Virus record (IMG/VR): IMGVR_UViG_3300001847_000838
Span: 26,296-90,295 of that record
Reading direction: 5' to 3' (one strand)
Length of the DNA: 64,000 bases
DNA from: a virus
Shown here piece by piece: positions 8,409-59,655 of the stretch. The position numbers were made by a program, and so were the translations under genes. The notes beneath the pieces are model-generated. The model saw only the letters and a program-made list of their open reading frames with translations, did no database searches and was not told where the DNA came from. Position 1 is the first letter of the stretch; the number at the start of each line of letters is the position of its first letter.

Positions 8409-9464
8409 ATGGGAAATAAATGGACTAAGGCTTTAAATGCCTATGATGACGTTGTAAAATACGACTACGATGCGTATGCTGCAGAAAACTGTCTGTACAC
8501 CCCAAGCCCATATGTTAATTGGACTTTTGCTAACAAAAGCCATGGCATTCCAAAAGGATCTTCTATCTTGCTATTTAGTGAGCAAAAAGCTGGAAAATCG
8601 ATGATGATGCAGGCAATAATTGGCGAAATGCATCAGAGAGATCCCGAAGGCATTGCCATCGTTTTTAACACCGAGATGAGAGGCAAGTTTCAAAGCGGCA
8701 TGTTTGATACTATTGACAAAGACCGGCTGATCACCTACGACTCTAACCGACCTGAGGATATATTTGATCGATTTGAGCGCGACATCTTGCCAATGGTGCA
8801 GGAGGGTATGCCTCTTCGAATTGTATGCATCGATTCTCTTACTGCAGTTGGTGGAACCAAGTCCCTGTCTGCTGATCGCAGCGTAAACGATCACCTTGTG
8901 GGCGATCATGCGCTCACGATCAATAAAGGTCTAGACAAGATTGTTCCTTACTGCAAGCGTCACAACATTTTATTGATCTGCAGCTCTCAGATGAGGGCTA
9001 ACGTGGACGCCTCCAATCCACATGCCCCTAAGGAAAAGATGGCGGAAAGCTGGAAGGTTAAACATACTTTTGAATTTTTTATGTCAATCAAGCGTGCGGC
9101 AGCTGCAGATGATAAAGTTGATCTTTCTGGAAATAAGTTTGAAGATGAATCCGTCAAAGATGCTCGAGGCAACAAAGACCAGACCGGACACAAGATTTAC
9201 TTCAAGATGGAACAGAGCAGCATCGGTAAAGCTGGAAGATCTGGTATACTTACACTTGATTATACTAGGGGAATTGTAAATACTAATGAAGAAATTTTTG
9301 AGTTAGGTAAAAATACGGGTGTAATTGAGAACGTAGGTGCTGGATCGTACATTGTTTATGGAGAAAAGATTCGCGGAAAAGCTGAAGTAGCTGAGCGCAT
9401 CAAAAATGATTCTGAGCTAGCAAAAAAGATTTTAGATGATGTACGAAAGAAAGATGCGGAGTAG
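8409..9464 (+). CDS. RecA/UvsX-like recombinase
   Basis: GIPKGSSILLFSEQKAGKS (Walker A variant), FNTEMR, VCIDSL (Walker B), SSQMR. Confidence 0.8.
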   Translation: MGNKWTKALNAYDDVVKYDYDAYAAENCLYTPSPYVNWTFANKSHGIPKGSSILLFSEQKAGKSMMMQAIIGEMHQRDPEGIAIVFNTEMRGKFQSGMFDTIDKDRLITYDSNRPEDIFDRFERDILPMVQEGMPLRIVCIDSLTAVGGTKSLSADRSVNDHLVGDHALTINKGLDKIVPYCKRHNILLICSSQMRANVDASNPHAPKEKMAESWKVKHTFEFFMSIKRAAAADDKVDLSGNKFEDESVKDARGNKDQTGHKIYFKMEQSSIGKAGRSGILTLDYTRGIVNTNEEIFELGKNTGVIENVGAGSYIVYGEKIRGKAEVAERIKNDSELAKKILDDVRKKDAE

Positions 9465-16403: not shown

Positions 16404-16739
16404 TTACCCCATTAAAGCCGCGATCTCTTCGTCGGAGAGACCGAGGATTTTTAGTTTTGCTTTTCCAGAAGCAGCCTTAGCCTCAACATCAGCTTTGCGA
16501 GCTTCTTGAGATTTATAAGAAGCACACATTTCATGATCTTCATCATCAAGCTCTTCCCATTTAACATCGATTGCCAAGATGATGTCCTCCGAAGGTTCCT
16601 CTAAAAAGTGAAGCTTCAAAGAAGAATTTGCAGAATTTCCGCAATAATGCTCTCCGCAATTTGCTTTTGCCCAAATATCAAATGCCTCAAGATTTATCTT
16701 GTGCTCTTTCCAACTTAATTCTTTTGTGTATTTAACCAT
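16404..16739 (-). CDS. hypothetical protein (possible fibre assembly factor)
   Basis: directly follows fibre gene; C-terminal KAKLKILGLSDEEIAAL is a motif often seen next to fibre genes. Confidence 0.55.
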   Translation of the reverse strand: MVKYTKELSWKEHKINLEAFDIWAKANCGEHYCGNSANSSLKLHFLEEPSEDIILAIDVKWEELDDEDHEMCASYKSQEARKADVEAKAASGKAKLKILGLSDEEIAALMG

Positions 16740-16751
16740 TGTTTTTGCTCC

Positions 16752-19451
16752 TTAGAGTTCTGTTATGCTAATCATGCGCCTTAAACCTACCGCAGTTAGC
16801 GTTGTTGCTGAACCGGCAGCCCAATACAAATCAATTTTATGTGTTCCTTTTGGCAAAAACATAGGGATCGTGTTTGATGCAGCATAACCAGTTGCATCGC
16901 GAAGTGCTCCGGGACTATTTTGGGCATTTGAAGGAACTACGGCATAATTTCCATTAATAAATATACCAACCCAACTAGCTGTACTGGTACTCGCATTTAT
17001 AAGAGCATAATAATTGATCAAAAACCAAGACCCATTTGAATTGACAGTAAGAGACATGTCTGGACAGGGAACTGGTGTTGTTGAAGTAGTAGTGGGGTCG
17101 CTTGTTATAGGAAAAGCTGAAGCATGATACTTTTGAAAAGCAAAAGCTTCCTTTACAGGTGTTAATTTTCTGTTATCACTAATCGCGTTCGATCCAACCG
17201 GAAGAGTATTTTGAAGATTGCCGTAAAGGTTACTCTTGTGAGAGTGGATAGGAGTGATAATGTCGATGGTGTTTACATCCAATACGCTGGATGCGGTGTT
17301 GTTTGTGAAGCGAACCTTGTACAGTCCGAGAGGCAAGTTGTTGATGCTGAGGCCCGATCCTGGGGTGTCGGATGCGTCAAGCTGGTCGAGGACTCCAGAG
17401 GAGAAAGTTACCCCAGTGCCATAGACGCTCGCAGTGAGTGTAGGGTAGTTAATCGTGGTCGCGGCAAGACCGTTCAGCGCGACAGAGATGCTTGCCGACC
17501 TGCCGGATGTGGCTCTGAACCGCATCTCGAAGCCAGTACCGAAGAAGGTATACTCGGAGTACGCAGAGCTTCTATCGGTGGTTATGTTCACACCACCGAT
17601 GAAGGTAGTGGCGGCGATTGCTCCGGCCATAGACCAGTCGAAGCTACCACCAGTTCCGTTAATGTACGTCAGCTCTCTAGTACAGAATTTTCTGAGAACC
17701 CCTGCACCGATCGTGTCGATGCCAGCCGTAGAGTTGGCTACATAATTAGCCATCACATTGTAATCAGCTAACTCTACTGCACCGGAAGGTAAACTAGGTT
17801 TTTTGGGTTGATAAACGATGAAAGAATGTAAATGTTCAGTATTTGTTGGAGAAGGAGATAAGTTGGCAATCTTTAAAGTATGTGTTCCGTATGGAAGACC
17901 GGATGCAATTTTTCTTGTTTGAGCTGATCTTGATAATCCAGTTACGTTTCCTACGTTTGTTCCATCTATATATATTTGAACGTTATCGGCTACAGTTCCG
18001 GATAAGTTAGCTATAACGTAATCAACCCCAGTACCCACAAATGTAAAAATTACAAAACTATTAGCATTTGCTAACCTTAAATATTCGTTTAATGTAGAGC
18101 CGTTATCTACAGCAGAAGCAACTAAAGCAGTTGAGCCATCATCAAGAGTAAATGCTCTATTGGTAGAGCCAGATGCTACAGCCATTGTAGAAAAGTCATC
18201 TGTTCTACCGGCACCAAACTCACGGAAATGATAACGACGAGCTATTTCTTCGTTTGTATGATCTGCAGAACTCATATATGCAGCGCTTGCGTTGGCCGCT
18301 TGAAATGCTTGTCCTAGTGTACCATCAGACTTTAAATACGTTAAGGTACGACCGCCTTTTGTGCCGGTTACGGAGGTATTGTAAGAAAAGCTTTGAAGCG
18401 ACGAGGCTACATATTGTTGATTTTTTAAGTAAGCATAGCCAGAAGTTACTTTTACAGATGAAGATTCATTTAAGATTTCAAAACCGTAGATCTTAACTGC
18501 GTTTGTGCTGTTGTTACGAAGCTTCACGGTGTGAACGCCGAGCGTCTGCGCAGAGTAAACTGGCAGAACCTGATTGGTAGAGTAGTTTCTAGTATCCAGA
18601 GCACTGCTGTAGGAGGCCGCGAAGATGTTAGCAGCTTCTGATCCCCCATCTATGGAGGGGCGGATGTCCATGCTTGCGGAGGCAAGGTCGGCAAGCAGGT
18701 TAAGGCCCGTACCATAAAAGGTAATCTCGATGAAATCCCCAGACGTAGAGGAGGACATAAACTGGCCGCTGGAGGTTATATTGTTAGACCAGCTACCTAC
18801 AAACCTAATCAGTCCCTTATCATCATTTAAAACACCAAATACTCTCTCACCACTCGATCCGAATTCATTCTGAATCTCGTAAACCTGCTGGACGATCAAC
18901 CGATCAATACCCATCCTAGGCTTAAGATCCTGTGAAAGATCTGTGATTGAAGCACGCTTGGTGATAGAAGAATAAAAAGTACCGGCAGCAGGGGAGCCAG
19001 CAGTAGTAGTTGCTGAGATAAGATATGAGCTATTATCTATAAACGCTTGAAAACCAGCGTCCTGAGCAGCATACAGCTGCACGAACCGGTTGTCCATTCC
19101 AAACTGAACTTCGGGTTTGAGGCCAAGTTTATATGCTTGAATGTTTAGGTTAGCTGAGATGGCAGCGGTAAGGGTAACTTGCGAAGACGTGCCATCTGAA
19201 GCTACCGAGGTAAAGGTGTAGTCATGAGATGAGCCAAGCCTAAGCTTTTTGCCATCCACAAACAGCCAGAAGTTGTCCGTGTAGCCAGAAGAGGTGGTGT
19301 CAACGGTGAATGACAGGTTGATCACTGTCTGGCTGGCCGTGGACGTAGCGTAATAGCTGTTGATGACCGGCTGGTTGAGGTTAGCAGGCAGATCGCTGTT
19401 GGTTAGCTTTTTAATGTTTGACTTACTATTTATTGATTGTGTCAACGGCAT
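16752..19451 (-). CDS. tail fibre/receptor-binding protein, paralogue 1 (899 aa)
   Basis: three FxGTG beta-sandwich repeats; collinear homology to the C-terminal two-thirds of 20038..23976. Confidence 0.75.
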   Translation of the reverse strand: MPLTQSINSKSNIKKLTNSDLPANLNQPVINSYYATSTASQTVINLSFTVDTTSSGYTDNFWLFVDGKKLRLGSSHDYTFTSVASDGTSSQVTLTAAISANLNIQAYKLGLKPEVQFGMDNRFVQLYAAQDAGFQAFIDNSSYLISATTTAGSPAAGTFYSSITKRASITDLSQDLKPRMGIDRLIVQQVYEIQNEFGSSGERVFGVLNDDKGLIRFVGSWSNNITSSGQFMSSSTSGDFIEITFYGTGLNLLADLASASMDIRPSIDGGSEAANIFAASYSSALDTRNYSTNQVLPVYSAQTLGVHTVKLRNNSTNAVKIYGFEILNESSSVKVTSGYAYLKNQQYVASSLQSFSYNTSVTGTKGGRTLTYLKSDGTLGQAFQAANASAAYMSSADHTNEEIARRYHFREFGAGRTDDFSTMAVASGSTNRAFTLDDGSTALVASAVDNGSTLNEYLRLANANSFVIFTFVGTGVDYVIANLSGTVADNVQIYIDGTNVGNVTGLSRSAQTRKIASGLPYGTHTLKIANLSPSPTNTEHLHSFIVYQPKKPSLPSGAVELADYNVMANYVANSTAGIDTIGAGVLRKFCTRELTYINGTGGSFDWSMAGAIAATTFIGGVNITTDRSSAYSEYTFFGTGFEMRFRATSGRSASISVALNGLAATTINYPTLTASVYGTGVTFSSGVLDQLDASDTPGSGLSINNLPLGLYKVRFTNNTASSVLDVNTIDIITPIHSHKSNLYGNLQNTLPVGSNAISDNRKLTPVKEAFAFQKYHASAFPITSDPTTTSTTPVPCPDMSLTVNSNGSWFLINYYALINASTSTASWVGIFINGNYAVVPSNAQNSPGALRDATGYAASNTIPMFLPKGTHKIDLYWAAGSATTLTAVGLRRMISITEL
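17158..17186. repeat. 29-nt tract identical to 20438-20466
   Basis: ggtgttaattttctgttatcactaatcgc at both sites. Confidence 0.9.
18192..18212. repeat. 21-nt tract identical to 21451-21471
   Basis: aaagtcatctgttctaccggc at both sites. Confidence 0.9.
18450..18488. repeat. 39-nt tract identical to 21709-21747
   Basis: ttttacagatgaagattcatttaagatttcaaaaccgta at both sites. Confidence 0.9.
18970..19028. repeat. 59-nt tract identical to 22235-22293
   Basis: gaataaaaagtaccggcagcaggggagccagcagtagtagttgctgagataagatatga at both sites. Confidence 0.92.
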
Positions 19452-19473
19452 ATTTACCTACTATATCATAAAG

Positions 19474-20028
19474 TTAAGGGGTTGCAGGAACAATATCAAA
19501 ACTGGTCCAGCCTGAAATTGGTACCGTTACAGTAAAACTATAAGATTCTGCTGTTTGAGTTAAAGCACAAAATGCACTTCCTACAAAAATAGGAGTTGAA
19601 TCATTAAATTGAAAAACACTAATTAGTGCGATGTTTGTTGTGTTATATGCTACAGCGTATGCAAGTGCTCTTTCTGTTCCACTTGGCGCTCCGTTACTAT
19701 TGACTGCTCCGCTTGAATTTCTAACAATAGCATTTCCAACAATTGCTTGATTTCCAAGAGTAGAAGGCGTTAATTTTGAACTATCTATTGTATAACCCAA
19801 AGGAAGTGGAAAAAGATAAATACCACTACCAGCAGCGGCTCCAGTATTGTTTGTATGATAATAATTGTAAGTAATTTGCATGGAGTCGCCTAATCTTCTC
19901 CATTTTGCAATATCAATTACTGTTGTAGTTGCTTTTGTTGGATTACTTGTAGTACCGGCTATATTCATTGTATAGCTTTGCCAATCTGTTGATGCAAGTT
20001 TTGCATGTACTCCAAAGATCTTGCTCAT
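19474..20028 (-). CDS. small tail-fibre tip-like protein
   Basis: TDWQSYT...AKWRRLGDSMQI...YLFPLP...TVPISGW pattern typical of fibre distal domains; AGGAG SD. Confidence 0.6.
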   Translation of the reverse strand: MSKIFGVHAKLASTDWQSYTMNIAGTTSNPTKATTTVIDIAKWRRLGDSMQITYNYYHTNNTGAAAGSGIYLFPLPLGYTIDSSKLTPSTLGNQAIVGNAIVRNSSGAVNSNGAPSGTERALAYAVAYNTTNIALISVFQFNDSTPIFVGSAFCALTQTAESYSFTVTVPISGWTSFDIVPATP

Positions 20029-20037
20029 GTTATTCTC

Positions 20038-23000
20038 CTAAATTTCTTTAACTGAAAGTGCTCGCTGCACGCTATTAGCTGTAACTGTTCCCGCACCAGA
20101 AAACACATACCAATAAACGTCTATTTTGTGAGTTCCAGCAGACAAATAAACTGGAAGATTCATAGAAACTGGATAGTTTGGAGCATTAGTTGCGCCAATT
20201 AACTGTTCTGCTCCTACATATACTCCATTAACATAAAATCTTATAGCTACGTTCATTGTATTTACGCTAATTGCCATTGAACAATAAAAACTTAAATCAA
20301 ACCAATTAGCAGATAAAGCCCTAACAGTAAGGGACATATCCGGTATTGGTACGGGAGTTGACGAACTTGCTGTTGGACTAGAGCTAATACCAAGAGCAAC
20401 CCCCCTAAATTTCTGGCTAGACTGAATTTCCTTTACGGGTGTTAATTTTCTGTTATCACTAATCGCATTAGAGCCTACAGAAAGAGTATTTTGAAGATCG
20501 CCGTAAAGGTTGCTCTTGTGAGAGTGGATTGGGGTGATGATGTCAATTCCGTTAACATTTAATTGAGCAGCATTTCCTGTAGTAATTCTTAATGTATATC
20601 GTCCAAGTGAAAGCCCTGAACATACAAAGCCAGTAGCGCGGGTGGTAGAAGCATCGTTCATATCAAGAACGCCCGTTCCACTATTATATCCGGTTCCTGT
20701 ACCGTATGTGCTAAAAACAGCAGTTGGAAAATTTGCAGATGTTAGGGATGTTCCGTTTATAGTTACATTTAACGTAGAGGAAACAACTGAAGCTGCTTCT
20801 AAGCGACAGTCAAATCCGGTACCAAAAAAAGTATATTCAAAATAATTGTTAATAGCCGCTGAAGAGGTGGCAGCATATCCAAAAATAAAAAGGGTAGGAT
20901 CAAGAGCTGAAAGAATCCATGTTCCAGAATATATCATTTCTCTTAAGCCAGATTTTCTTAATGTTCCAGTAGAAATACGCTCCAATCCAGCCGTAGAATT
21001 GGCGACAAAATCCGCCATCACATTGTAGTCAGCAAGTTCAATGGCCCCCAAAGGAAGTGAAGGCTTTTTAGGTTGGTAGACAATGAAGCTGACAAACGCA
21101 CCAGCGTTTCCGCTAACGTTAACCCTTGTAAACTTTACGGTATGGGTTCCATACGGAAGACCAGAAGCAACCTTTATTGTTTTTAACGATGTAAACGCGC
21201 CCAACGATCCGACGGAAGTACCGTCTACGGTCGCTGTAAAGGTATCGGTACTTGCTCCACTGCCAACATTAGTAAGAATATCAAGTCCAGTACCGACAAA
21301 GGTAATAGTTAAAAAGTTTCCAGCAGCATTCGGAGTAATGTTTTCAATGCTATTTGTAGTAAAGATAAAAGAAGAGTCGGTAACCAACGTAGTAGTTCCG
21401 TCGTCTAGCGTAAAAACCAGGTTGGTTACGACTCCGTTGGCTGACTTACTAAAGTCATCTGTTCTACCGGCCCCGAACTCGCGCCAACGATAAATCCTAG
21501 CAATTTCCTCGTTCGTATGATCCGCACTTGTTAGGTATGCAGCGCTTGCGTTGACCGCTTGAAACGCTTGGGCTCGAGCACCAGAAGAACTTAAATACTC
21601 AAGGACTCTTCCTCCTTTAGTTCCCGTAACAGCGGCATTGTAAGCAATAGAGGATTGTGCGCTAAGCGCAAGCTTTTGACCGCCGACGTATGCAATGCCA
21701 GGCTGAATTTTTACAGATGAAGATTCATTTAAGATTTCAAAACCGTAAACGTGTATATCTTGAGTGGCAGCTGTTGTAGCGGTTATTTTGATTGTGTGAA
21801 CTCCTAAAGAAAGACCACTTACAATAGGAACGATATTGTTAGGAGCATAGTTTCTTCCAGTAAGAACAGAGGAGTAACCAGTGCTTAATATATTTGCCGA
21901 GTCAGCGCCCCCATCTACGGAATAAGTAAGGGTTCTTGTGGCAGAAGAGTGAACAAAAAGCAAGTTTAAGCCTGTACCGTAAAAAGTTATTTCAACATAA
22001 TTGTTGTTGATTACTGTATCTGCATATGCACCGTTGTTATCAACAAGATTAGTCCAATTTCCAACAAACCTTATCTGTCCAAAAGTATCATTTAATGCAG
22101 CAAAAACAGGCTCTCCACTTGATCCAAACTCGTTTTGAAGTTGATAAATTTGTTGAACTGATATTCTTTCAATGCCCATTCTAGCTTTAAGGTCTTGACT
22201 TAAATCAGGAATGGCAGCGCGGTTTATAATTGATGAATAAAAAGTACCGGCAGCAGGGGAGCCAGCAGTAGTAGTTGCTGAGATAAGATATGAAGTTGTG
22301 TTAACAAACGACTGAAATCCCTGCGACATGATTTCTTGTTGAGCAAAGATCGCAGTTGTGTTGGTCGTAGAAGAATCAATGGTTTGTTGACGCTGTAGAA
22401 CCTCTACGTTCACGCTTGAGCTGCTGTAATCCTTATCCAACCTAATTACGTTACTGGTTATCTCCGTGTAGCAACCGTCAGGGGTAAGGGTGGCATCGAT
22501 GTATCTAGGGATAAGTTGACCGTTCAGATAAACGTCAATGCTTCCATATGGACCGCCGGAGTTTAAGCCTAATGCATACTGCCAACTTAGCGTTATCTGT
22601 GTTTTTCCACCAACTACGGAAAGCGAGCAGTTTACCGGCGAACCAACGCCGTTGGTAAAGGCGTAAGCATAGTTTGCCACGTTCGTGGCGGTGCCAGTTT
22701 GAGTAGCCTTCTGCATGAAGGCGCGGTAGGCGATTAGGCTGGCCGTTCCTGATCCGCTGGTCTTAGATGCAAAGAATCGAAGGTAAAGGCTGGTACCAGA
22801 AGTGGGGCAAACTACGCTCGAGACCTGACCTTGCTCAGATGATGGTCGGTTGTTTGCCGAGGTCCAACTGGAATTGTCTGTTGACGCAGCATATCCTACA
22901 TAAGGAGCTACGTTAACAGCGTATAAATTGTTGCTGATTGAGTTGTTGTCTTGATAGGTTACTAAGATTTCAGAAAAGCTTGAGCTAAAAGCAGAAGAAA

Positions 23001-23976
23001 TAGCATTAGACCCTACAGAAAGATTGTAAATATCTTTTGTGTGCACACATTGGGATACTGTAACTTGTGCCCCTATTGAAGGCACTGAACTTATTGTCTC
23101 TACCGTAAAGTTGGTCTGGCTATTTACCGTAGTGATTTTTACAATCTGACCAGTAGATAGAACGCAAACGTCTCCAACAGCAACTGTAAAAGATGGGGCG
23201 CTGCTAATGATTACAGTTGTTGAATTAGTTCCAGCGGCAATTGTTTTAGACGCATCATAGCTCATACTTAACATTGATAGGCTACCGCTATAGATAGCGT
23301 TTGTATAGCCAGCAGAACTATTTATTGAACTTGTAGACGTAGATGGAGATTCGGGAAAAACTTCTCTAAAGCTTGCTTGAAATTGAAGAGCATCAAGATC
23401 GTCGCCTATCCCTGATCCTGAACCAGACGATGCTCCGCCACCGCCATGTATTTGATATAGCATAGCGTTAGTAATATTTTGAATGATGCTGGAAGCATTA
23501 GATTGAGCTACAATGTATCCAAGGGAAAGAGCGCTTGAGCTTGGTGCGGGAATTATTACTGAGCCTAAAGAAGCGGCAGCCGAACCTACCGTTAAAGCAA
23601 TTTGACCAGAGCTGTTTACAGATACAAGTACCGCACAAAATTGGTTAGCACCAATTGTAATGGTAGCATTTGATCCGTTGCTGTTTGTTATGGTGCCGCC
23701 ACCTATTCCGGAAGGAAAAGTGAGAGTACCTCCAGCAAAGCTTACAAAAGTGTTATTTACAGGAGATAAAACTCTTTTCTTTGAAGTGTTTGAATTGGAT
23801 ACACTTCCAGACCCTACCGTAACGACCAAGCTAGGTGTAGACTGAGCAATTAAACGTCCAGGAGCAGTAAGCTCGCTATTAATAGATGCTAGAGTGCTAT
23901 CCATCCCCACCTTAGCGGAAGAGTTAAGTTGATCTTGAAGTACCCGTGTTTCTGATTGTCTTATATCTAAAGCCAT
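20038..23976 (-). CDS. tail fibre/receptor-binding protein, paralogue 2 (1312 aa)
   Basis: S/T/G-rich; three FxGTG repeats; shares its C-terminal ~650 aa with paralogue 1. Confidence 0.78.
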   Translation of the reverse strand: MALDIRQSETRVLQDQLNSSAKVGMDSTLASINSELTAPGRLIAQSTPSLVVTVGSGSVSNSNTSKKRVLSPVNNTFVSFAGGTLTFPSGIGGGTITNSNGSNATITIGANQFCAVLVSVNSSGQIALTVGSAAASLGSVIIPAPSSSALSLGYIVAQSNASSIIQNITNAMLYQIHGGGGASSGSGSGIGDDLDALQFQASFREVFPESPSTSTSSINSSAGYTNAIYSGSLSMLSMSYDASKTIAAGTNSTTVIISSAPSFTVAVGDVCVLSTGQIVKITTVNSQTNFTVETISSVPSIGAQVTVSQCVHTKDIYNLSVGSNAISSAFSSSFSEILVTYQDNNSISNNLYAVNVAPYVGYAASTDNSSWTSANNRPSSEQGQVSSVVCPTSGTSLYLRFFASKTSGSGTASLIAYRAFMQKATQTGTATNVANYAYAFTNGVGSPVNCSLSVVGGKTQITLSWQYALGLNSGGPYGSIDVYLNGQLIPRYIDATLTPDGCYTEITSNVIRLDKDYSSSSVNVEVLQRQQTIDSSTTNTTAIFAQQEIMSQGFQSFVNTTSYLISATTTAGSPAAGTFYSSIINRAAIPDLSQDLKARMGIERISVQQIYQLQNEFGSSGEPVFAALNDTFGQIRFVGNWTNLVDNNGAYADTVINNNYVEITFYGTGLNLLFVHSSATRTLTYSVDGGADSANILSTGYSSVLTGRNYAPNNIVPIVSGLSLGVHTIKITATTAATQDIHVYGFEILNESSSVKIQPGIAYVGGQKLALSAQSSIAYNAAVTGTKGGRVLEYLSSSGARAQAFQAVNASAAYLTSADHTNEEIARIYRWREFGAGRTDDFSKSANGVVTNLVFTLDDGTTTLVTDSSFIFTTNSIENITPNAAGNFLTITFVGTGLDILTNVGSGASTDTFTATVDGTSVGSLGAFTSLKTIKVASGLPYGTHTVKFTRVNVSGNAGAFVSFIVYQPKKPSLPLGAIELADYNVMADFVANSTAGLERISTGTLRKSGLREMIYSGTWILSALDPTLFIFGYAATSSAAINNYFEYTFFGTGFDCRLEAASVVSSTLNVTINGTSLTSANFPTAVFSTYGTGTGYNSGTGVLDMNDASTTRATGFVCSGLSLGRYTLRITTGNAAQLNVNGIDIITPIHSHKSNLYGDLQNTLSVGSNAISDNRKLTPVKEIQSSQKFRGVALGISSSPTASSSTPVPIPDMSLTVRALSANWFDLSFYCSMAISVNTMNVAIRFYVNGVYVGAEQLIGATNAPNYPVSMNLPVYLSAGTHKIDVYWYVFSGAGTVTANSVQRALSVKEI

Positions 23977-26293: not shown

Positions 26294-26296
26294 AAT

Positions 26297-26749: not shown

Positions 26750-29526
26750 TATTTCACCCACCAGCTAGCGCCATCGCTTACAAGCGTTATAGTTTCATAC
26801 TGTACAGAAATTTGTAATGGGGTAGCCGTAGCATTTGTTCCATCAATTGTTTGACTAAGCACCGTTTTAACATAAAGAGAATTGCCGCTATCTAAAAGCT
26901 TAAAGGCAATTTGTTTTCCACTATTTCCTATTGCAGTAGGTATAGTTACAGTACGGTCAACACCCAAGCAGCTTACAAGAATAAAATCATCATTTAAAGA
27001 TGCAGTATAGTTTGCTCCATTTATAGTTACTACGTTTAATAAAGGAGCGGTAGCGGCTGATGCAATTGTAATATCATCAGTATTTTCAGTAATTGTTATA
27101 CCGGTACCTTGTTTTAGCCGGCGAAAGTTTAGCGTTACACCAGTTTTATTTTTATATATAGCAGCGCCCGTACCTAAATTAGAGCCAGCATTAGCTTCTC
27201 CTCCAGAAGCTCCTACTACCAAGCTAGGGTCTATTCTAAAAATAAGTTCATCATCAATTAACAAGTTAACGTTTATTGTTATGGTATTGCTTTCAGTTCC
27301 TGTAGTTCCTATTTCTGACCACTGGCTATCATCTAGCCTTTGGCCGTTTAAGAACACCTGAAGCATGCCCATGCCTACTACATAATATTTATTAAGGCTA
27401 CCATTTCTAGAATCAGGGGGAAGAGTTAAGGTGCTACCAGAAGAGACCGGCCCCGTAATCTGTGTGGGTCCCGAAGGAGCCCCAGATACTACAAGGATAA
27501 TTTCTTCATAATCGTTTTTATCATCTTGAGTAAAAGCATTTAAAACATCGTCGAGGCGTTTAATACTTAATGTTAAATCGTCTCCATCTACTAAAAAGAA
27601 GTTAGGGACGCCTGTTCCTTGTGTAGCTACTGATATAGTAAGGCCACCAACACTAACGTTTGAAGCATCAGTTGTAGTTCCAGCTATTAAATTTGTTACT
27701 GTAGCTTGAGCACTAAGGACGCTAACGCTGAACTGAAGAGGGGCGGCAGAGTTTATGGCGACTTGAAACGCTGAAGCTACTTGAGCCCCAGTATCTCCAG
27801 TAGATACGCTAACAAGTATGCCGGTACGGTTAACTGGAGCAGGATCTAAACCTATACCATTCTTTTTAAACCATACATAATACTTGGCAATATCTCCGCC
27901 ACCGTTTATTAGCAAATATTGACCGCCAGATATAGCAGCTGCTCCGGTAAATGTAAAGTTGGTCACTTCAGAAGTAAGGGCACCTAGCTTTGTAGAATAC
28001 TCGGGAGCATCATCCGCTTCGTCTTTTGCTCCTATATACTGAATTAGCTGTTCTGAAGTTTCATCATTAATATCTACACTTTCACCTTGTTTGAGTTCTG
28101 CTCCGATGAATCGGGCGTATACTCTTGATGTAGGACTTGAATTGTCAGATCTCAATAGTATCCAAAATATATCTTCATTAAAAGGTACATTTGCACGCGA
28201 AGCTATCTTTACATGGCGCCCAGTGCTTGGAATAGCCACAGCCTGATAAACGCCGTAAGCATAATGAGATTTTGAGCCAGTCGGCCCTGTAGATGTTCCT
28301 GTAAAAGAAGATGTAAGTGTTACTTGACTTAATGAATCAACAGATTGTATTTGATAATATTTAGTATCATCATCAGTAGCAAGCTTTACCCAGTCGCCAG
28401 CTACTAAACTGCTGGTCCAGCTTACCGCTCCTACCGAACTTACAGTTTGAGATCCTGTTGTCCAAATTAAATTTGGTATTACTGACTGTCCACGAACAAG
28501 ATTTATATATGCAACTTGATCGTCAGCAAGGGTTATATAAGAATTTGGTGTAGAATTTGCAAGAATTTTATAAGAAAGTCTTGAGCCTACAACTTTTATA
28601 TAAATATCGTCAGACCAATTTATTCGACCAGAAACTGTTTTGTCGTGAGCGATATCTCCTCTACCCGTAAACACAGTATTTCCAAGATCTTCACGCAAAG
28701 AAACAAGGGATCCACCAATGTTTTCGGAGTACCAAAAGGTAGTGCCCTTTAGCTCTTTAAACATGGTCATTACTGAGTCCATCCACTCTTTCATGTTGTA
28801 AATCATTTTGTCCCCACCACGGAACGGATTTACAGCATTGGATGTAGAGGTAGGTGAATTTTCCGATCTACCCTCGGATTGGTTAGTCCATGGGTATTCA
28901 TATGATGGATTTGGATTAGATTTTCCGCCTTTTCCAAGGCGAAACAGCATGTCACGATCATCCGTAACATCTACTACGTTGTTAGCGACGTCGGTGGTTA
29001 CCTTCGCTATCGGCAGCACGTTGCTTGCCCATACGCTGGTAGTTATTACTATGGTATAGCTTAATGTCTTTGCTAACGGAACTGTCTTGCTGGTTTCGTT
29101 CTTGTTTGTAGGATCCCAAATGTAGATCTGATCATTTGTACTATCATCTACTGCTCGCTGGTACTCTATACCGACATAGTTAACGGCGTTAGGAGTAAAA
29201 GCTCCTATAACTTTAGTGTTAATAGTAGAATTGAGTATTTCTGGAGAAGTTCCTGAAGGTACTAAGAAAAAAGTGCCGCTTTCTTTAGAGGAACTGTGAA
29301 ATATGCATCCAGAATCTACAAGAAGTTGAAGTCCTGATGCCGAACCCCCAATGGCTCCAGACATGCTGATTTCAAAACCCCGAAGAATGTAGCCGTTACC
29401 GCTACCCGTCACTAAGCCAGAAAGTAGCTCATCAAAGTCGTTAGATGTAGCGGACTCAATGCTCCGCATGTGTGGAACATCAACCCTAGCTTGAGACAAG
29501 AAGTTAAACCGTCTTCTGACTGCCAT
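26749..29526 (-). CDS. baseplate/proximal tail fibre protein (925 aa)
   Basis: structural block; N-terminal baseplate-anchor-like segment; contains the DPAPVNRTGI domain. Confidence 0.65.
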   Translation of the reverse strand: MAVRRRFNFLSQARVDVPHMRSIESATSNDFDELLSGLVTGSGNGYILRGFEISMSGAIGGSASGLQLLVDSGCIFHSSSKESGTFFLVPSGTSPEILNSTINTKVIGAFTPNAVNYVGIEYQRAVDDSTNDQIYIWDPTNKNETSKTVPLAKTLSYTIVITTSVWASNVLPIAKVTTDVANNVVDVTDDRDMLFRLGKGGKSNPNPSYEYPWTNQSEGRSENSPTSTSNAVNPFRGGDKMIYNMKEWMDSVMTMFKELKGTTFWYSENIGGSLVSLREDLGNTVFTGRGDIAHDKTVSGRINWSDDIYIKVVGSRLSYKILANSTPNSYITLADDQVAYINLVRGQSVIPNLIWTTGSQTVSSVGAVSWTSSLVAGDWVKLATDDDTKYYQIQSVDSLSQVTLTSSFTGTSTGPTGSKSHYAYGVYQAVAIPSTGRHVKIASRANVPFNEDIFWILLRSDNSSPTSRVYARFIGAELKQGESVDINDETSEQLIQYIGAKDEADDAPEYSTKLGALTSEVTNFTFTGAAAISGGQYLLINGGGDIAKYYVWFKKNGIGLDPAPVNRTGILVSVSTGDTGAQVASAFQVAINSAAPLQFSVSVLSAQATVTNLIAGTTTDASNVSVGGLTISVATQGTGVPNFFLVDGDDLTLSIKRLDDVLNAFTQDDKNDYEEIILVVSGAPSGPTQITGPVSSGSTLTLPPDSRNGSLNKYYVVGMGMLQVFLNGQRLDDSQWSEIGTTGTESNTITINVNLLIDDELIFRIDPSLVVGASGGEANAGSNLGTGAAIYKNKTGVTLNFRRLKQGTGITITENTDDITIASAATAPLLNVVTINGANYTASLNDDFILVSCLGVDRTVTIPTAIGNSGKQIAFKLLDSGNSLYVKTVLSQTIDGTNATATPLQISVQYETITLVSDGASWWVK

Positions 29527-49012: not shown

Positions 49013-49981
49013 TTAAGCAGCTAAAGTTACCATCGTTACTGCCGTCTCCAGCGCTTTTTTGTTGATCTGCATGCCTTGACCAAACCAGGTATTATCAAGT
49101 CTTGCTTGACTGTCTTCGCCGCGTTCGTATTGGACATACTCAGAAACCGCTTGGTAAGCGCTCCAGAAAGTTCGACGTGTTTCTGGAAGATTTTGGCCGC
49201 GTCCGTTTTCAAAAAGGTTGATAATTTTACCTTTAATACGATCTCCAGAGTTTAGCTCCTCTACATTGCCTTCAGCATCAGACATTTGCTTTTTTGTAGC
49301 AAACACAATTTTGATATACTTTTCGAGGTCAGAAGTGTTAATCTCACGGGAAGCTAACAGGCGATATTGCTCAGCTGTTGTCTCAAACTCTTGATCCGCA
49401 AGGTTCATAGTTTCGCGGATCTTTTCAAGATTGCTTACTACATTGCCACTATGCTTTACGCGAATGAGCTTAGAGGCGTTACTATCATGAGCCATTGCTA
49501 GAGTGTTGGCGCAGACTACCCGAATTGGAGTAAAACCTACCCGAACTGCAAGCGTACCATCATGGCTGTTGGAAAGAAGGACATACTTCTCCACGATATC
49601 GTTGCCCTTGATCACAAGGGCGTCGCGCTTGAGCTTGCAGAGCACAAACACGCGCTTGCCCTGGCGGAGCGAACCCGCGCACTCGATGGTGGCCTCGTTT
49701 GCGTCGAGGAAGGGCTTAAAAAAGGAAAAGGCCTCGTCGTTTTGAAGCGGCTTGTAAGCCGGGCCAACCACGCCAAGGATCGAGAGATCCGAGCTACGGC
49801 GAGTAAGGAGCGCTGGAGCCTTGTCGCCGTTATTAGCAAAGAGTGGCTCCGTGGTTACTTTCCAGTTTAGGCCCGCAGCAACAATTGCATCGTCTAGTGT
49901 GGGTGGCTCAAGAAAACGCTGGCCTAGGCTATGCCAAGGGGTTTGACCTACATACATCATTTGTTCTACTTCATGTGCCAT
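49013..49981 (-). CDS. DUF932 / TIGR03299-like phage-plasmid protein
   Basis: MAHEVE...PWHSLG, AGLNWKV, AGSLRQGKRVF, LLSNSHDGT, TPIRVVCANTL. Confidence 0.88.
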   Translation of the reverse strand: MAHEVEQMMYVGQTPWHSLGQRFLEPPTLDDAIVAAGLNWKVTTEPLFANNGDKAPALLTRRSSDLSILGVVGPAYKPLQNDEAFSFFKPFLDANEATIECAGSLRQGKRVFVLCKLKRDALVIKGNDIVEKYVLLSNSHDGTLAVRVGFTPIRVVCANTLAMAHDSNASKLIRVKHSGNVVSNLEKIRETMNLADQEFETTAEQYRLLASREINTSDLEKYIKIVFATKKQMSDAEGNVEELNSGDRIKGKIINLFENGRGQNLPETRRTFWSAYQAVSEYVQYERGEDSQARLDNTWFGQGMQINKKALETAVTMVTLAA

Positions 49982-54334: not shown

Positions 54335-56695
54335 ATGGCTGATTTAAAAAAGACAATGACGTTTGCAACACGAGTCGATACCACAGAGTTTGATCGAACT
54401 GTAGACCTACTTCAAAGAAAAATAAAAGACATTTATCGGGGAGCTGATACTGCACGCTTACAATTTGAAAACAGGGTACGGATGAGTCAGATTGGTATGG
54501 GACCGCAGGTTACTCCACAAGAAAGAAGAATAACTGAGATAGCCGATGTTCGTGCTCGAAACGAGTACAGACTTTTTATCAAGGAACAGGCTCGAGACAA
54601 CACAGAGATTAACAAGCAAATTGTTGAAAAAATAAAATTGTTAGAAACTGCAAAAAAATTAAACCAAGATACTTCTAAAATTGAACAACAAATTGCACAA
54701 CTTGCAGGCCAGCGTGCAGGTAAAGAAGAAGCTATAAAACGCACTTTAGAACAAGCAGAAATAATAAGACAACGACAAATAGATCCCTCTAGAATAATGA
54801 ACAGACTTTGGGAAGGTGATAAGAGGGGCGCAAAAAGAGCAGCTAAAATAGCTTTTGGAAGAATGACCGGCGCAGAAATAAGCACGATGTTTGGTGGTGC
54901 TATTGTAGGTGCAGGAGAGATGGCCGCCATAGCCGGTCAAACACCGGCTCAAGTATTAGAAAACCGCGCCTTAGCTGCCCAATTCAATAACGAACAGCTC
55001 CGGAGAGCATTTGCTGGCCAAAGATATGAAGACATATATTACAAAAAAGAAATGGGCCAAGCTGGAACGGTGGCCGGAGCAAAGGTTGGAGGTATGGCTA
55101 TTAGAGATATAGCTATAGCTTTAGCTGGTCTTGTGGCTATGGGGGCCGCTACAGTTGGTACAGCAGGAGGAGCATTAGCATTTTTAGGTGGCTTAGGCGC
55201 TGCAGGTTTTGGAGCTTACAAGCTTGGTATGGGCACTTTAGGCGGAGGATATTCGGCAGAATATCAGCAATCTCGACGTAAAGCATATGAAGAACTTAAA
55301 GAGCTTGATTTTTTTAAAAAATATGCAATGGAAGACTTGCAAAAAAACATGTATTCAAACTTACAAACTCAAAGAGCATTGGGGTTAGGTGACGAACAGC
55401 TTCGTCAAGCATATGTTGCTGGCAGTCAAGCTGGTTTTGTAAAAGAAAACATTAGAGGGGCCATGATGGAAATCTTAGGCGCAGGCGGCTCTACCAGAGG
55501 TGTAAGGGAGCTTGCGTCCACCGCGCTTGGTTTTCAGAGAGACTACGGCATCACAAACGCTTCCCAACTTCTTGGCAGGCTAAGCGGTACAGTCGGCGGC
55601 GCTGCTGAGTCCGAGCAGTCGATGATCAAGATCCTTTCTGAGGGAACCAGGATTGGCCTAGGAAAATCCGAGCTTAGGCAAGAACTTCGCACGTTCAGCG
55701 AGAACGTAGCTGATCTAGCGTACAGGGTCGGGGCCACGGGTCCTGAGCGGGTTGGAGCGCTCAGCGCCATGTCGGGCGCTTTCGTGGCTGATACTACCCC
55801 TCGCGGGCTCGAGGCTGCTAAAAACGCACAGGAAGCCCTGAGGCAAAGGGAGATCTCCCAGTCTGGCCTAAAGGCTGCAGTCGAGGCTGGCGAGATGATG
55901 AGTGATCCTGGATTGAGCAAGCTGGATACCTCACAGATGCTTAGGTTGCAGGGTATGTCGGCAACTCAGATCGCCTCGCTGTCGGGTCCAGAGCTTGAGG
56001 CCATGCTCGATAAGACCGGGTTGTCTGAGGAAGAGTTCAAGAAGAGGATGGCTTCTGCCAAGGTTAGCGCTATCACTGCAGGGGCGCCAGGAGCCAAGCA
56101 GGAACTCTACGACTTCCAGAAGAAGACAAAAGGAAAATCTTACAAAGATATCATGAGCGATCCTCAGCTTCGGATTCAAGCTGGTCACCTACAAAGCATG
56201 TTTGGCGGCCAGATACTTCCTGCAGGCATGGAAACTCCAGAAGTTCAATCTTTTACACAAGGTATAGTAACAAGGGAAGCGGCAGTTGCTGATTATTATC
56301 AGACTCAAGGTGTAGAAGAGTATAGAAAACGTGTTAGAGGCAAAGGAAGAGCCCCTGAGCTTGATCAGTATGCTTCTCCGATGCCAGAGGTCTCACCGGA
56401 AACGTTGGCAGACAAGCAAGAGCGTGCTGCCGCCGCCCAGCAGCTGTCGGCCCTGGAGTTACAGAAACTCTTTGGGGAAGATTTTAAGAACAGCGTGGAT
56501 GACGCTAGGATAGCTGCCGTTAAGTTTGCCACCGCTTTGACGGAAGCTGCTGATATGATAAGAAAAGGCGATCCGGAAGGTCAAAAAAGGATGAACTGGA
56601 TGATGGAAAATCCCCAAGCTGACCCGGAAGCTTATAGGCGCCAACAACAACCCCAAGCAACCACACCTCAAGAATACTATTCTACAGATAGATAG
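54335..56695 (+). CDS. putative tape measure protein
   Basis: helical Ala/Gly/Gln-rich with a hydrophobic Gly-rich central segment; precedes hub and spike genes. Confidence 0.7.
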   Translation: MADLKKTMTFATRVDTTEFDRTVDLLQRKIKDIYRGADTARLQFENRVRMSQIGMGPQVTPQERRITEIADVRARNEYRLFIKEQARDNTEINKQIVEKIKLLETAKKLNQDTSKIEQQIAQLAGQRAGKEEAIKRTLEQAEIIRQRQIDPSRIMNRLWEGDKRGAKRAAKIAFGRMTGAEISTMFGGAIVGAGEMAAIAGQTPAQVLENRALAAQFNNEQLRRAFAGQRYEDIYYKKEMGQAGTVAGAKVGGMAIRDIAIALAGLVAMGAATVGTAGGALAFLGGLGAAGFGAYKLGMGTLGGGYSAEYQQSRRKAYEELKELDFFKKYAMEDLQKNMYSNLQTQRALGLGDEQLRQAYVAGSQAGFVKENIRGAMMEILGAGGSTRGVRELASTALGFQRDYGITNASQLLGRLSGTVGGAAESEQSMIKILSEGTRIGLGKSELRQELRTFSENVADLAYRVGATGPERVGALSAMSGAFVADTTPRGLEAAKNAQEALRQREISQSGLKAAVEAGEMMSDPGLSKLDTSQMLRLQGMSATQIASLSGPELEAMLDKTGLSEEEFKKRMASAKVSAITAGAPGAKQELYDFQKKTKGKSYKDIMSDPQLRIQAGHLQSMFGGQILPAGMETPEVQSFTQGIVTREAAVADYYQTQGVEEYRKRVRGKGRAPELDQYASPMPEVSPETLADKQERAAAAQQLSALELQKLFGEDFKNSVDDARIAAVKFATALTEAADMIRKGDPEGQKRMNWMMENPQADPEAYRRQQQPQATTPQEYYSTDR

Positions 56696-56707
56696 AACTG
56701 GCGGATT

Positions 56708-58606
56708 ATGAGCAAGGCTTACGTAGTTGATGTAGGTAAAAATAGTGATGATTCACATCAGATGAATCCAGCCTATATGTTGACGTTCGTTAGATGGACT
56801 AACCGCGACACCCTCCGGATGCAGTCCTCGGGTAGCGAGGGCGACCTTGGCGTCACAAAGCCCATGGTGGTGATCAACGACTGCGTAAGCCTTACCACCA
56901 GCATGGCGAAGTCCCAGCAGACCCCATCGGTGAACATGGTGCTCAGGGCAGGAGACATCAACTACGAGACTGCCGTAGCTCCCGGCGACTTTGTGTTTGT
57001 AAACATGATCCTGGACGACGACAAGCGCAAGGATGGAAAGATCGTAGAGGGTAAGCTCCAGGACCTGTATGATAGGGCGTCCTCGGGCAAGCACATCAAT
57101 GGCAAGAACGACGGCTTCAAGGGTTTCTACAAGATCCAGTCGGTGCGCAGGACCATTAGCGTTGACCCCAACAGCGGCACCAAGATCGTCTTTTTCAGAA
57201 TTGACGGCTTCGCCTTCACCGAGTTCAACAACAACATCTACTTCAACCCGTACCTGGTGAACGACCCCAAATTTGCTGCGGATGCCATCTACTCGTCGAA
57301 TATCGGCCTGGACTACAAGCAGTTTATCGACAGCCAGAAGGAGAAATGCGGAGCCTCCGTAGAGTTCACCCTCAGGTTCTTCATCGAGAAGTTCCTTGGC
57401 AGAGGCAACGGTGAGATGACCACCACGATCAAGAACTCGATGGGCAAGAGGGAGGTCCAGACGTCGCAGAACTCCCCGTTTAAGGTACCGTCCCTGACAG
57501 GCAGCCTGCTCGGCATCAAAGCGGCTACCGCAGAGGGTCTGGCGGCGAAGGACCTCTACACCTATCTGTTCGGCATCCAGAACTACGACCGTTCCGATAG
57601 CCTGGAGTCAGGGATGAACCCTTTAGCCACGAACTCGGGTGGCAGGTTCTTCCTTACAGGTCAGGGTTGCCAGGGTAACGTGCTGCTGAAGCCCGAGTAC
57701 TGGAACCAGGTACCGGTATGGTCAATCTTGCGCCAGTACATCAACGCCCCGATCAACGAGTTGTACCCCTGCTTTAGGGTGTCGCCAGAAGGGTTTGTCG
57801 TACCTACCCTTGTTCTGAGGCAGATCCCCTTTAGCACCGAAGCCTATGGTGGAACTTGCACCAAGTTTCTCAACCTTCCCCGCTGGAAGATCGACCCCGA
57901 GCTGATCTACGACCTGGACATTGGCAGGGACGAGGCTGCGAAGATCAACTTCGTGCAGGTGTTCGGCATCCAGGGCGGCATCGAGAAGCCCGACGCCAAC
58001 GTGAGCTTCCAGATCGCCAGGGGCAACTACGTGGCCGATACCGCCGACATCACCCGTGCCGGTCTGAGGCCATACGTCCTAACCTCGAGCTTCGACTGGC
58101 CCAACGTCAAGGGCGACAGCCTCACGTTCCACGCCCCCACATGGGCAAGGCTGCTGGCAGATTCCCTGGTCGGCGGACACCTGAAAATGAACGGGACCGT
58201 GACATGCGCTGGAATCCAGGCCCCGATCGCCTGCGGGGACAACTTTGAGATTGACGGGATCGTATACCACATCGAGAGCGTCATGCACACGATGTCCATT
58301 GACAGCAGCGGCAAGAAGAAGTTCCGTACTACCTTGCAGCTGTCTAACGGCATCGATAAAAGCTACACAGCAAAGCAACCGCGATATGCTGATATGGAGT
58401 TTACGGACATAGAGCTTGAGCGTCAAAAGCAGTTCGCGAACGACCAGCTGTTCAACGGCTTCTCCGATGAGCAGATCCTGCCCGACAGGAAGAGCGGCAT
58501 CAAGCTAAAGTCCCACAACAACTCGTTCTTGCTGCCCAAGAGGAAGACCGCGCAGTCTCCCTCCAACAGCAAGGTTGACAAAAAGAGCAAGAGGTTGATC
58601 AAATGA
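56708..58606 (+). CDS. baseplate hub (gp27-like)
   Basis: TAVAPGDFVFV, GFYKIQSVRR, HLKMNGTVTCAGIQAPIACGD...YHIESVMH...TTLQLSNG. Confidence 0.7.
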   Translation: MSKAYVVDVGKNSDDSHQMNPAYMLTFVRWTNRDTLRMQSSGSEGDLGVTKPMVVINDCVSLTTSMAKSQQTPSVNMVLRAGDINYETAVAPGDFVFVNMILDDDKRKDGKIVEGKLQDLYDRASSGKHINGKNDGFKGFYKIQSVRRTISVDPNSGTKIVFFRIDGFAFTEFNNNIYFNPYLVNDPKFAADAIYSSNIGLDYKQFIDSQKEKCGASVEFTLRFFIEKFLGRGNGEMTTTIKNSMGKREVQTSQNSPFKVPSLTGSLLGIKAATAEGLAAKDLYTYLFGIQNYDRSDSLESGMNPLATNSGGRFFLTGQGCQGNVLLKPEYWNQVPVWSILRQYINAPINELYPCFRVSPEGFVVPTLVLRQIPFSTEAYGGTCTKFLNLPRWKIDPELIYDLDIGRDEAAKINFVQVFGIQGGIEKPDANVSFQIARGNYVADTADITRAGLRPYVLTSSFDWPNVKGDSLTFHAPTWARLLADSLVGGHLKMNGTVTCAGIQAPIACGDNFEIDGIVYHIESVMHTMSIDSSGKKKFRTTLQLSNGIDKSYTAKQPRYADMEFTDIELERQKQFANDQLFNGFSDEQILPDRKSGIKLKSHNNSFLLPKRKTAQSPSNSKVDKKSKRLIK

Positions 58607-59655
58607 GGCTAAAGAACGGCACGGTACTGCCCAGTGGCCTGCTCAACTATGACCCAGGACGGGCTGCGGCCACCTTTAACGAGACCTACAAGAACACGGC
58701 CCTACGCGCAGGCATCGTGGTGAAGGTTTACGAGGTGGATGACAAGCGCAACCTCTCCGGCTTGGCACCAGAGTACGACGTCGTGGCTGTAGAGTACGGC
58801 GGCGCTGGCGGCGTCACCACGCGCAGGTATAAGAACTGCCTGTCCGCTGATGGCCTAGGCTCCATCGCCGACTACTTCGAGCGCCGGTTCCGCAAGCAGG
58901 AGAAGTTCGACAAGCAGAACGGCGGGAACGACTTCAAGGGCCAGGACGGCGCAGCCGTGATCCTCCTGTGCCTCGACGGCAAGTCCGAGAAGGCCATCAT
59001 CCTGGGCGGCCTGCATCACCCCGACCGCAGTGCCAAGCTGGACAAGGACACGTCAATGGCCGGTGAGATCAACGGCGTCCAGGTGTCAGTCAAGGCCGAT
59101 GGCTCCGCCAACCTGACCTTTCGCGGTGCCACCGACAATAATGGCAAACCCAAGGACTCGAGCCAGGGCGACACCACGATCGACATAGAAAAGGATGGGT
59201 CCTTTCAAGTAAAGAATAAGGGCGTTACTCAGCGAGCCCAGAAGGACGGCGAATACAGCGTCTCGAGCGAAGGCGGTCAAGCCTACTCAGCTAAGAAATC
59301 GATAAGCATGACAACCGACGACAAGGTATCAATAAACGCAAAAGGGGATGCAAATCTATCTATGCAGAACCTATTGATATCTGCTCAGGGGTCGGCTACA
59401 ATGTCAGCACAGTCTTTGTCTATACAGACAAGCGGTGAAGGTAATTGTAAAGGTCAAATGTTATCTTTTGAGGCTTCAGCTATGCTTAAACTTAAGAGTT
59501 CTCAAGTTGTGATTGACGGTTTTGTATCATTAGGTGGTTTTGGTGGAATGCCCGCCGTTGTTTTGCAAACTATGTACCTTGGTATAGGAAACCTTGGTTC
59601 TCCAGTTTTATCTATGGCCATTGGGCCTTTTTCATCAAAGGTAACTATAACATGA
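58603..59655 (+). CDS. baseplate central spike (gpV/gp5-like)
   Basis: N-terminal OB-like domain (GIVVKVY...VILLCLDG...IILGGLHHP) followed by beta-helix repeats. Confidence 0.75.
   Translation: MRLKNGTVLPSGLLNYDPGRAAATFNETYKNTALRAGIVVKVYEVDDKRNLSGLAPEYDVVAVEYGGAGGVTTRRYKNCLSADGLGSIADYFERRFRKQEKFDKQNGGNDFKGQDGAAVILLCLDGKSEKAIILGGLHHPDRSAKLDKDTSMAGEINGVQVSVKADGSANLTFRGATDNNGKPKDSSQGDTTIDIEKDGSFQVKNKGVTQRAQKDGEYSVSSEGGQAYSAKKSISMTTDDKVSINAKGDANLSMQNLLISAQGSATMSAQSLSIQTSGEGNCKGQMLSFEASAMLKLKSSQVVIDGFVSLGGFGGMPAVVLQTMYLGIGNLGSPVLSMAIGPFSSKVTIT

Follow-up and report, generated by a model that had tools for sequence, protein, structure and literature searches.

Phages are known to diversify their tail fibres by diversity-generating retroelements (DGRs) and by invertase shufflons, and among duplicated genes the bacterial pair tufA and tufB is an example of interlocus gene conversion. 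Haggard-Ljungquist in 1992 and Sandmeier in 1994 are said to have described how the tail-fibre genes of P2, Mu, P1 and lambda-like phages are horizontally mosaic. For gp37 and gp38 of the T-even phages (Straboviridae), one account presents glycine-rich or His-box motifs as proposed recombination hotspots at which hypervariable adhesin segments are swapped (PMC12032242, citing Tetart et al. 1998, Trojet et al. 2011). Here we consider two putative tail-fibre genes, f1 and f2, in a 64,000-nucleotide (nt) stretch of viral DNA, referred to below as the window, which forms part of a 121-kb IMG/VR record estimated to be 75% complete (IMGVR_UViG_3300001847_000838, positions 26,296 to 90,295). A sequence-only reading of the window had proposed that conserved tracts common to the two genes act as crossover points for the swapping of domains. 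That core idea is supported, and it was refuted by none of the tests named at the time for that purpose, which concern codon bias, the position of breakpoints in relatives and the soundness of the assembly.

The two genes are encoded on the same strand, with a smaller gene between them (lengths in amino acids, aa):

20038-23976, minus strand: f2, the long paralogue, 1312 aa (open reading frame and translation; long-type clade)
19474-20028, minus strand: 184-aa middle gene, an open reading frame in a variable cassette slot
16752-19451, minus strand: f1, the short paralogue, 899 aa (open reading frame and translation; short-type clade)

A conserved N-terminal domain (aa 1-125) opens f1 and a unique N-terminal region of 540 aa opens f2; both proteins then run through a common array in the order linker, D1, mid, D2, hinge, D3, hinge, C-terminal. 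The explanation that we prefer, and to which as a whole we assign a probability of about 0.85, is that each paralogue consists of beta-sandwich modules resembling lectins or carbohydrate-binding modules (CBMs), namely D1, D2, D3 and the C-terminal module, joined by short conserved hinges, and that f1 and f2 are ancient paralogues in which homologous recombination limited to the hinges has produced conversion patches as well as the replacement of modules between phages.

On comparison, the locus appears to work like the T-even paradigm, in a different and uncharacterised family, and suggests no new mechanism. As with gp37/gp38, short conserved motifs alternate with hypervariable, putatively receptor-binding segments, the genes are mosaics whose breakpoints coincide with the motifs, and general homologous recombination would operate in a phage with a UvsX-type recombinase and neither reverse transcriptase nor invertase; the 121-kb record, estimated at 75% completeness, contains no match to PF00078 (reverse transcriptase) or to PF00239 (serine recombinase/invertase). 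In contrast to gp37/gp38, f1 and f2 belong to no related sequence or family (there is no Pfam or PHROG fibre match and no tblastn match), their modules are whole beta-sandwich domains of ~100-180 aa and not loops, and the hinges are common to two to three tandem paralogues, with patches of interparalogue conversion directly visible. The mosaicism of the P2, Mu, P1 and lambda-like phages is similar in that fibre segments are exchanged between otherwise different phages, but there invertible segments (Gin/Cin) and other fibre families are often involved, whereas here there is no invertase and the f1/f2 tracts are direct repeats, the sole inverted exact repeat of at least 20 nt in the genome being unrelated to them. 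Like the products of tufA/tufB conversion, the patches make paralogues alike beyond their orthologues and are limited to retained homology; unlike them, they are confined to hinge patches of 20-140 nt in genes otherwise ~56% identical in nucleotide sequence, and they coexist with the replacement of modules between genomes. With DGRs and shufflons the locus would share its target, a phage receptor-binding protein (putative here), but it has no reverse transcriptase, serine recombinase or template/variable repeat pair, only direct repeats; f1 and f2 themselves, both long coding regions with 56% nucleotide identity, are not a near-identical template/variable pair. The earlier suggestion of a recombinase-free and RT-free diversification system is borne out to the extent that no reverse transcriptase or invertase was found, while the word 'system' overstates what looks like ordinary homology-limited recombination.

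The common region extends over aa 126-899 of f1 and aa 543-1312 of f2, with 52% amino-acid and 56% nucleotide identity. Alignment bears out the collinear direct duplication reported previously and its offset (given as about 3.26-3.28 kb, measured here as 3259, 3265 and 3280 nt), although its length is ~2.3 kb and not the ~1.9 kb first estimated. In a maximum-likelihood tree of this region, built from 21 sequences of nine genomes, a branch with 97/99 support parts the long and mid forms from the short forms. Since the forms cluster by type across the nine genomes, the f1/f2 pair is older than the divergence of these phages. The tree thus indicates an ancient duplication, with no concerted evolution of the genes as a whole. 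Members of the 90% clusters depart from f1 and f2 by 1-2 residues only, and no recombinants were seen within this microdiversity.

Against this background of divergence the two genes retain short stretches of identical or nearly identical DNA. They are listed below together with two kinds of boundary: switches in the identity of f2 to its close orthologue in the relative L021, and change-points in the GC content of third codon positions (GC3) of f1.

18970-19028: 59-nt exact tract, f1 copy, encoding SYLISATTTAGSPAAGTFYS; start of the region common to f1 and f2
22235-22293: 59-nt exact tract, f2 copy; L021 identity switch at 22314/22315, 21 nt off
18450-18488: 39-nt exact tract, f1 copy, the YGFEILNESSSVK hinge after D1; contains the GC3 change-point 18485/18486
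21709-21747: 39-nt exact tract, f2 copy; L021 identity switch at 21705/21706, 3 nt off
18277-18294 (f1) and 21536-21553 (f2): 18-nt exact tract
18192-18212 (f1) and 21451-21471 (f2): 21-nt exact tract, GAGRTDDF motif
17722-17822: hinge 1, f1 copy (FIVYQPKKPSLP...ELADYNVMA), 75% identical to 20987-21087; contains the GC3 change-point 17738/17739
20987-21087: hinge 1, f2 copy; contains the L021 identity switch 21015/21016
17148-17283: hinge 2, f1 copy, 136 nt, 86% identical to 20428-20563; holds the 29-nt tract, 17-nt exact tracts at 17202-17218 and 17233-17249, and the GC3 change-point 17219/17220
20428-20563: hinge 2, f2 copy; flanked by the L021 identity switches 20562/20563 and 20400/20401
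17158-17186 (f1) and from 20438 (f2): 29-nt exact tract, inside hinge 2

All four perfect tracts of the sequence-only reading (59, 39, 29 and 21 nt) are thus present where it placed them, and the 18-nt tract and the two of 17 nt are additional. The motif of hinge 1 can also be written QPKKPSLP...ADYNVMA. Identity between f1 and f2 is 0.8-0.9 at the hinges vs 0.3-0.5 in the domains, and an alignment of 80 sequences shows the same alternation of short conserved motifs with hypervariable segments across the family. The record as a whole contains only 26 direct exact repeats of at least 20 nt, and four of these are f1/f2 tracts.

The tracts are specific to pairs within one genome. The longest exact match between the long and the short gene of the same genome is 59 nt in the window, 104 nt in L005, 38 nt in L016 and 29 nt in L014, whereas it does not exceed 26 nt in any of 64 long/short pairs formed across genomes, whose protein identity is similar; for the f1 and f2 of the window, cross-genome matches do not exceed 20 nt even against genomes of similar GC3 (L005 and L013). 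Under the pooled codon usage of f1 and f2, 19 consecutive identical codons have a probability of ~2e-10. When the codon-match labels of the window pair were permuted, the longest run was never above 12 in 3000 shuffles (p<=0.0003), and the same permutation gave p<=0.0003 for L005, 0.0007 for L016 and 0.006 for L014. Over the 59-nt tract, f2 shares 98% identity with f1 and only 62% with its L021 orthologue; immediately upstream the relation is reversed, with ~90% identity to L021 and no more than 53% to f1. The exact tracts are best read, on these sequence comparisons, as footprints of gene conversion between f1 and f2. Demonstrable exchange between the two within the window genome consists of short patches only, not of whole domains.

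A different kind of exchange emerges when relatives are compared. The f2 orthologue in L021 (L021:3588-7514; 73% amino-acid identity overall) matches f2 very unevenly along the gene, with successive nucleotide identities of 0.74, 0.90, 0.58, 0.93, 0.42, 0.75 and 0.40. The five switches listed above all lie at tracts or hinges; the sixth, at 22986/22987, is in the N-terminal part specific to f2. That N-terminal part is itself mosaic relative to L021, with nucleotide identity rising from 0.74 (aa 1-330) to 0.90 (aa 331-554), and the segment around aa 370-390 is 98-100% identical. Independently of the window lineage, the short genes of L005 and L013 are ~0.55 identical, but 0.75-0.85 identical across D3, from hinge to hinge, which on this alignment indicates a recent exchange of exactly the D3 module. 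The breakpoints in relatives that the sequence-only reading had asked about thus fall at the tracts and hinges, in the L021 switches and in the L005/L013 exchange alike.

The phylogenetic signal also changes from block to block. Among ~118 homologues of f1, its paralogue f2 ranks first for the linker and the C-terminus, 73rd for D1 and 25th for D3. Most of the nearest relatives of f1 D3, at 55-63%, are proteins of the mid and long types encoded in other genomes, and the best D2 match is P0096, at 79%. Counts of nearest neighbours by type in ~120 proteins are biased (103 short vs 12 long) and were used qualitatively only. Approximately unbiased (AU) tests reject monophyly of the short type in three of five blocks, mid+D2 (p=0.002), D3 (p=0.0016) and the C-terminus (p=0.012), and this segment-wise incongruence is found despite the support of the whole-region tree for the types.

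The base composition of f1 follows the same joints. The GC-rich patches noted earlier are real, and the hand counts given for them exact (37/60 GC at 17341-17400 and 19/60 at 18001-18060). They are an effect of the third codon position and not of amino-acid composition. In f1, GC3 is 0.62-0.78 for aa 1-80, 0.55-0.62 for D1 (aa 221-320) and 0.53-0.73 for D3, while it is 0.15-0.30 for D2 and the C-terminus, the genome median in 50-codon windows being 0.28. Change-point analysis divides f1 into four blocks with GC3 of 0.52, 0.22, 0.64 and 0.26, whose boundaries fall within the 39-nt tract, within hinge 1 and, in hinge 2, between the two 17-nt tracts. The GC-rich blocks are as follows:

18486-19451, minus strand: N-terminal-to-D1 block of f1, aa 1-322, mean GC3 0.52
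17220-17738, minus strand: D3 module of f1, aa 572-744, GC3 0.64

The analysis called no such change-point in f2, nor in any of 14 fibre genes taken from seven relatives. GC-richer relatives do exist, with locus GC of up to 0.52, and the blocks may derive from GC-rich donors of this kind. Taken together, the GC3 boundaries of f1, the f2/L021 switches and the L005/L013 exchange place breakpoints at the hinges.

A simple scheme would account for both kinds of exchange. Strand exchange would find sufficient nucleotide homology in the hinges alone, and general homologous recombination would therefore start and resolve there. Between the paralogues of one genome, exchange would abort in the divergent domains and leave the short conversion patches of 59, 39, 29 and 21 nt. 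Between co-infecting related phages, double crossovers at hinges would replace whole modules, and such replacement would give rise to the GC3-discordant blocks of f1 and to the block mosaic of f2 relative to L021. The probable enzyme would be the phage's own UvsX-like recombinase, for which a candidate gene is present:

8409-9464, plus strand: UvsX-like recombinase gene (phrog_97, E=7e-21)

Several observations weigh against this scheme, or restrict it. The consensus of the locus is stable from the 2015 source samples to a 2025 run of an independent study, from which it follows that exchange is not frequent at the consensus level. Four of eight genomes have no significant tracts by permutation. 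No donor of the GC3-rich D3 closer than 63% in amino-acid sequence was found among the homologues, which makes the import of D3 old or its donor unsampled, and L018, which carries this class of D3, has a copy low in GC3 (0.18), so the class of D3 and its GC content are not tightly linked. A short-to-long direction of conversion had been read from indel state; it is weakened by the presence of the same 13-residue spacing in L021. The coincidence of breakpoints with hinges was assessed on the f1 boundaries, the f2/L021 switches and the L005/L013 exchange, and identity change-points could partly mirror the alternation of conserved and variable regions, although D2 is variable across the family and is nevertheless 0.93-0.98 identical between f2 and L021. 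Logan contigs, in which rare variants are dropped and power is low, showed neither the deletion nor the chimera predicted for a crossover between f1 and f2. One candidate, an 18883->22168 joint at depth 2 with a side of 24 nt and 19 foreign letters between, came from a run with a diverged relative and is not evidence of such a junction; partial coverage in run X6 carries no weight either.

What f1 and f2 do must be predicted largely from their architecture. Their sole Pfam match is the CE2_N beta-sandwich (PF17996), in D2 in the middle of the protein, with 39.3 bits for f1 and 33.0 bits for f2 against a gathering threshold of 27.9. PHROGs gave no fibre annotation for either. Nucleotide and protein searches of the INPHARED phages, with tblastn covering 50,697 phage records, found no match, leaving the pair with no cultured relative to lean on. 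An AlphaFold (AF2) model of f1 from 80 homologues (predicted local distance difference test score, pLDDT, 84; predicted template-modelling score, pTM, 0.76) is confident and all-beta, with several sandwich domains. Searched against the PDB with Foldseek, the whole model matches CBM51, the CBM of GH101, reelin-like and lectin-type beta-sandwiches, all with low template-modelling (TM) scores, and the only proteins that match its whole fold are uncharacterised ones from uncultured Caudovirales. Across homologues, median identity to f1 is 62% over aa 1-125 and 38-45% for D1, D2, D3 and the C-terminus. A conserved N-terminus with variable distal domains is the usual layout of a receptor-binding protein, and this layout, in a tail and baseplate context, makes 'tail fibre' a reasonable designation. 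We therefore regard f1 and f2 as putative tail-fibre or receptor-binding proteins, with presence in the virion and receptor binding predicted; module exchange may affect host range.

The genomic setting agrees with this assignment. Judged by the matches of its neighbours, the pair closes a myovirus tail/baseplate module; these neighbours include baseplate wedge-like, 2186-aa Baseplate_J-like and 574-aa fibre-like proteins, with weak matches to sheath and tube. About 600 homologues were found; the contigs that carry them reach ~185 kb, and short, long and mid forms stand in tandem. The order of long gene, variable middle gene and short gene is kept across relatives. In the middle slot, relatives carry genes of 147-789 aa, some of which are a third paralogue (629-789 aa in L003, L017, L019 and the P0012 locus, without the N-terminal anchor); the copy number of the family thus runs from one, in L018, to three in tandem. 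The 184-aa protein that fills the slot in the window has no match in Pfam or PHROG, no homologue among the middle genes of relatives, and only unnamed viral clusters as matches in an Atlas search. One small neighbour is a constant companion:

16404-16739, minus strand: 111-aa gene, candidate accessory/assembly protein (blastp identity of 34-44% to small neighbours at 10 loci)

At each of the ten related loci checked, this acidic protein adjoins a fibre paralogue, following the short fibre in most relatives and the long one in L019, and it may be a fibre accessory or assembly factor. In L013, a GIY-YIG/NUMOD homing-endonuclease gene (L013:2871-3521) lies directly upstream of the long fibre gene; endonucleases of this kind can stimulate gene conversion nearby.

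Similar features occur at other loci of the genome. A GC3-rich island at window positions 54335-59655, with GC3 of up to 0.94, begins inside one gene and ends inside another; it includes an open reading frame at 56708-58606 with mean GC3 of 0.78 and, at 58603-59655, a gene with a weak baseplate-assembly PHROG match. Its appearance suggests that here, too, sequence from a phage much richer in GC came in by homologous replacement. In a phrog_1221 gene at 49013-49981, GC3 has a local peak of 0.82, vs the genome median of 0.28. Outside the window, at genome positions 101.6-110 kb, are two repeat-rich, fibre-like proteins of ~1040 aa with SGTWNVNNISGTVSLPTGAATSA and VSNFPATQPVSGTVTANAGTG repeats (L020:1117-4254 and L020:6462-9566, minus strand). 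Their genes have exact tracts of 71, 41, 35 and 34 nt in common and are a second pair of paralogues with conversion-like tracts. A 21-nt exact direct repeat at window positions 27832 and 33593 joins the genes for the 925-aa and 2186-aa baseplate proteins. Direct exact repeats of 34 and 62 nt, spaced by 570 and 314 nt, are found at genome positions 90142/90712 (window position 63847 and just past the end) and 91658/91972, respectively. GC3 islands and exact tracts at these other loci point to ordinary recombination acting on modular genes rather than to a dedicated system at f1 and f2.

The explanation that competes most seriously with homology-limited recombination is that of an evolved cassette-exchange system, in which selection keeps the tracts identical as dedicated recombination sites, possibly with stimulation by a nuclease nearby, and host range is diversified as a result. 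It gains from the recurrence of conversion or exact tracts at the same hinges in several lineages, from the coincidence of breakpoints with hinges, from the two to three tandem paralogues and variable middle slot of the family, and from the homing-endonuclease gene of L013. Set against this, half of the eight genomes have no significant tracts, GC3 islands and paralogue tracts are not peculiar to the fibre locus, no dedicated enzyme is encoded at this locus in the window, and generic homology-limited recombination predicts the same pattern. Moreover, the nucleotide sequences of the tracts are not conserved across genomes, which argues that they are not kept as a functional element at the nucleotide level. 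We consider such a system quite improbable. A related idea, that the hinge motifs are selected 'recombination joints' kept identical in nucleotide sequence within a genome by interparalogue conversion, also strikes us as unlikely. Were it true, two to three tandem fibres and co-infecting relatives could swap any beta-sandwich module in register, giving combinatorial evolution of host range, with neither reverse transcriptase nor site-specific recombinase, in widespread freshwater myoviruses.

It is very unlikely that the GC3-rich patches arose in place, through locally acting selection or mutational bias, on mRNA structure or translation for instance, and not by import. The failure to find a close GC-rich donor fits such an origin, but the blocks are sharply bounded at domain hinges, they are absent from f2 and the 14 homologous genes, their protein neighbours differ from those of the flanking blocks, and the island at 54-59 kb crosses gene boundaries. 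The view that the tracts are simply conserved peptides written in preferred codons, with no conversion, is hardly credible. All of the tracts do lie in the most conserved peptide motifs; however, the same peptides in genomes of similar GC3 (L005 and L013) match the window genes over no more than 20 nt, the run of 19 identical codons is far outside what codon usage would give, the permutation result also contradicts it, and the paralogue is locally closer than an orthologue with 90% identity. Amino-acid conservation plus codon bias, which the sequence-only reading had itself raised, therefore fails on the contrast between at most 26 nt across genomes and 59 nt within one. An assembly artefact of mis-joined or collapsed repeats deserves next to no credence, for although Logan unitigs break at the 59-, 39- and 29-nt tracts, which are hence repeats in the assembly graph (the k=31 unitig graph causes the contigs to break there), reads are longer than the tracts, both reading frames run through intact, and the same 1312/184/899 locus was assembled repeatedly. 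At least 15-19 contigs carry it, obtained from several samples by different assemblers, and a 2025 run from another study yielded it again.

In conclusion, f1 and f2 represent a large and uncharacterised fibre family in freshwater phages. The locus displays with unusual clarity, from sequence, how receptor-binding proteins evolve in abundant uncultured freshwater phages: whole lectin-like domains serve as modules and four short hinge motifs as joints, and conversion between paralogues and replacement between phages are both legible at near base-pair resolution. The hinges are natural module boundaries and, given a host, could guide domain-swap experiments.

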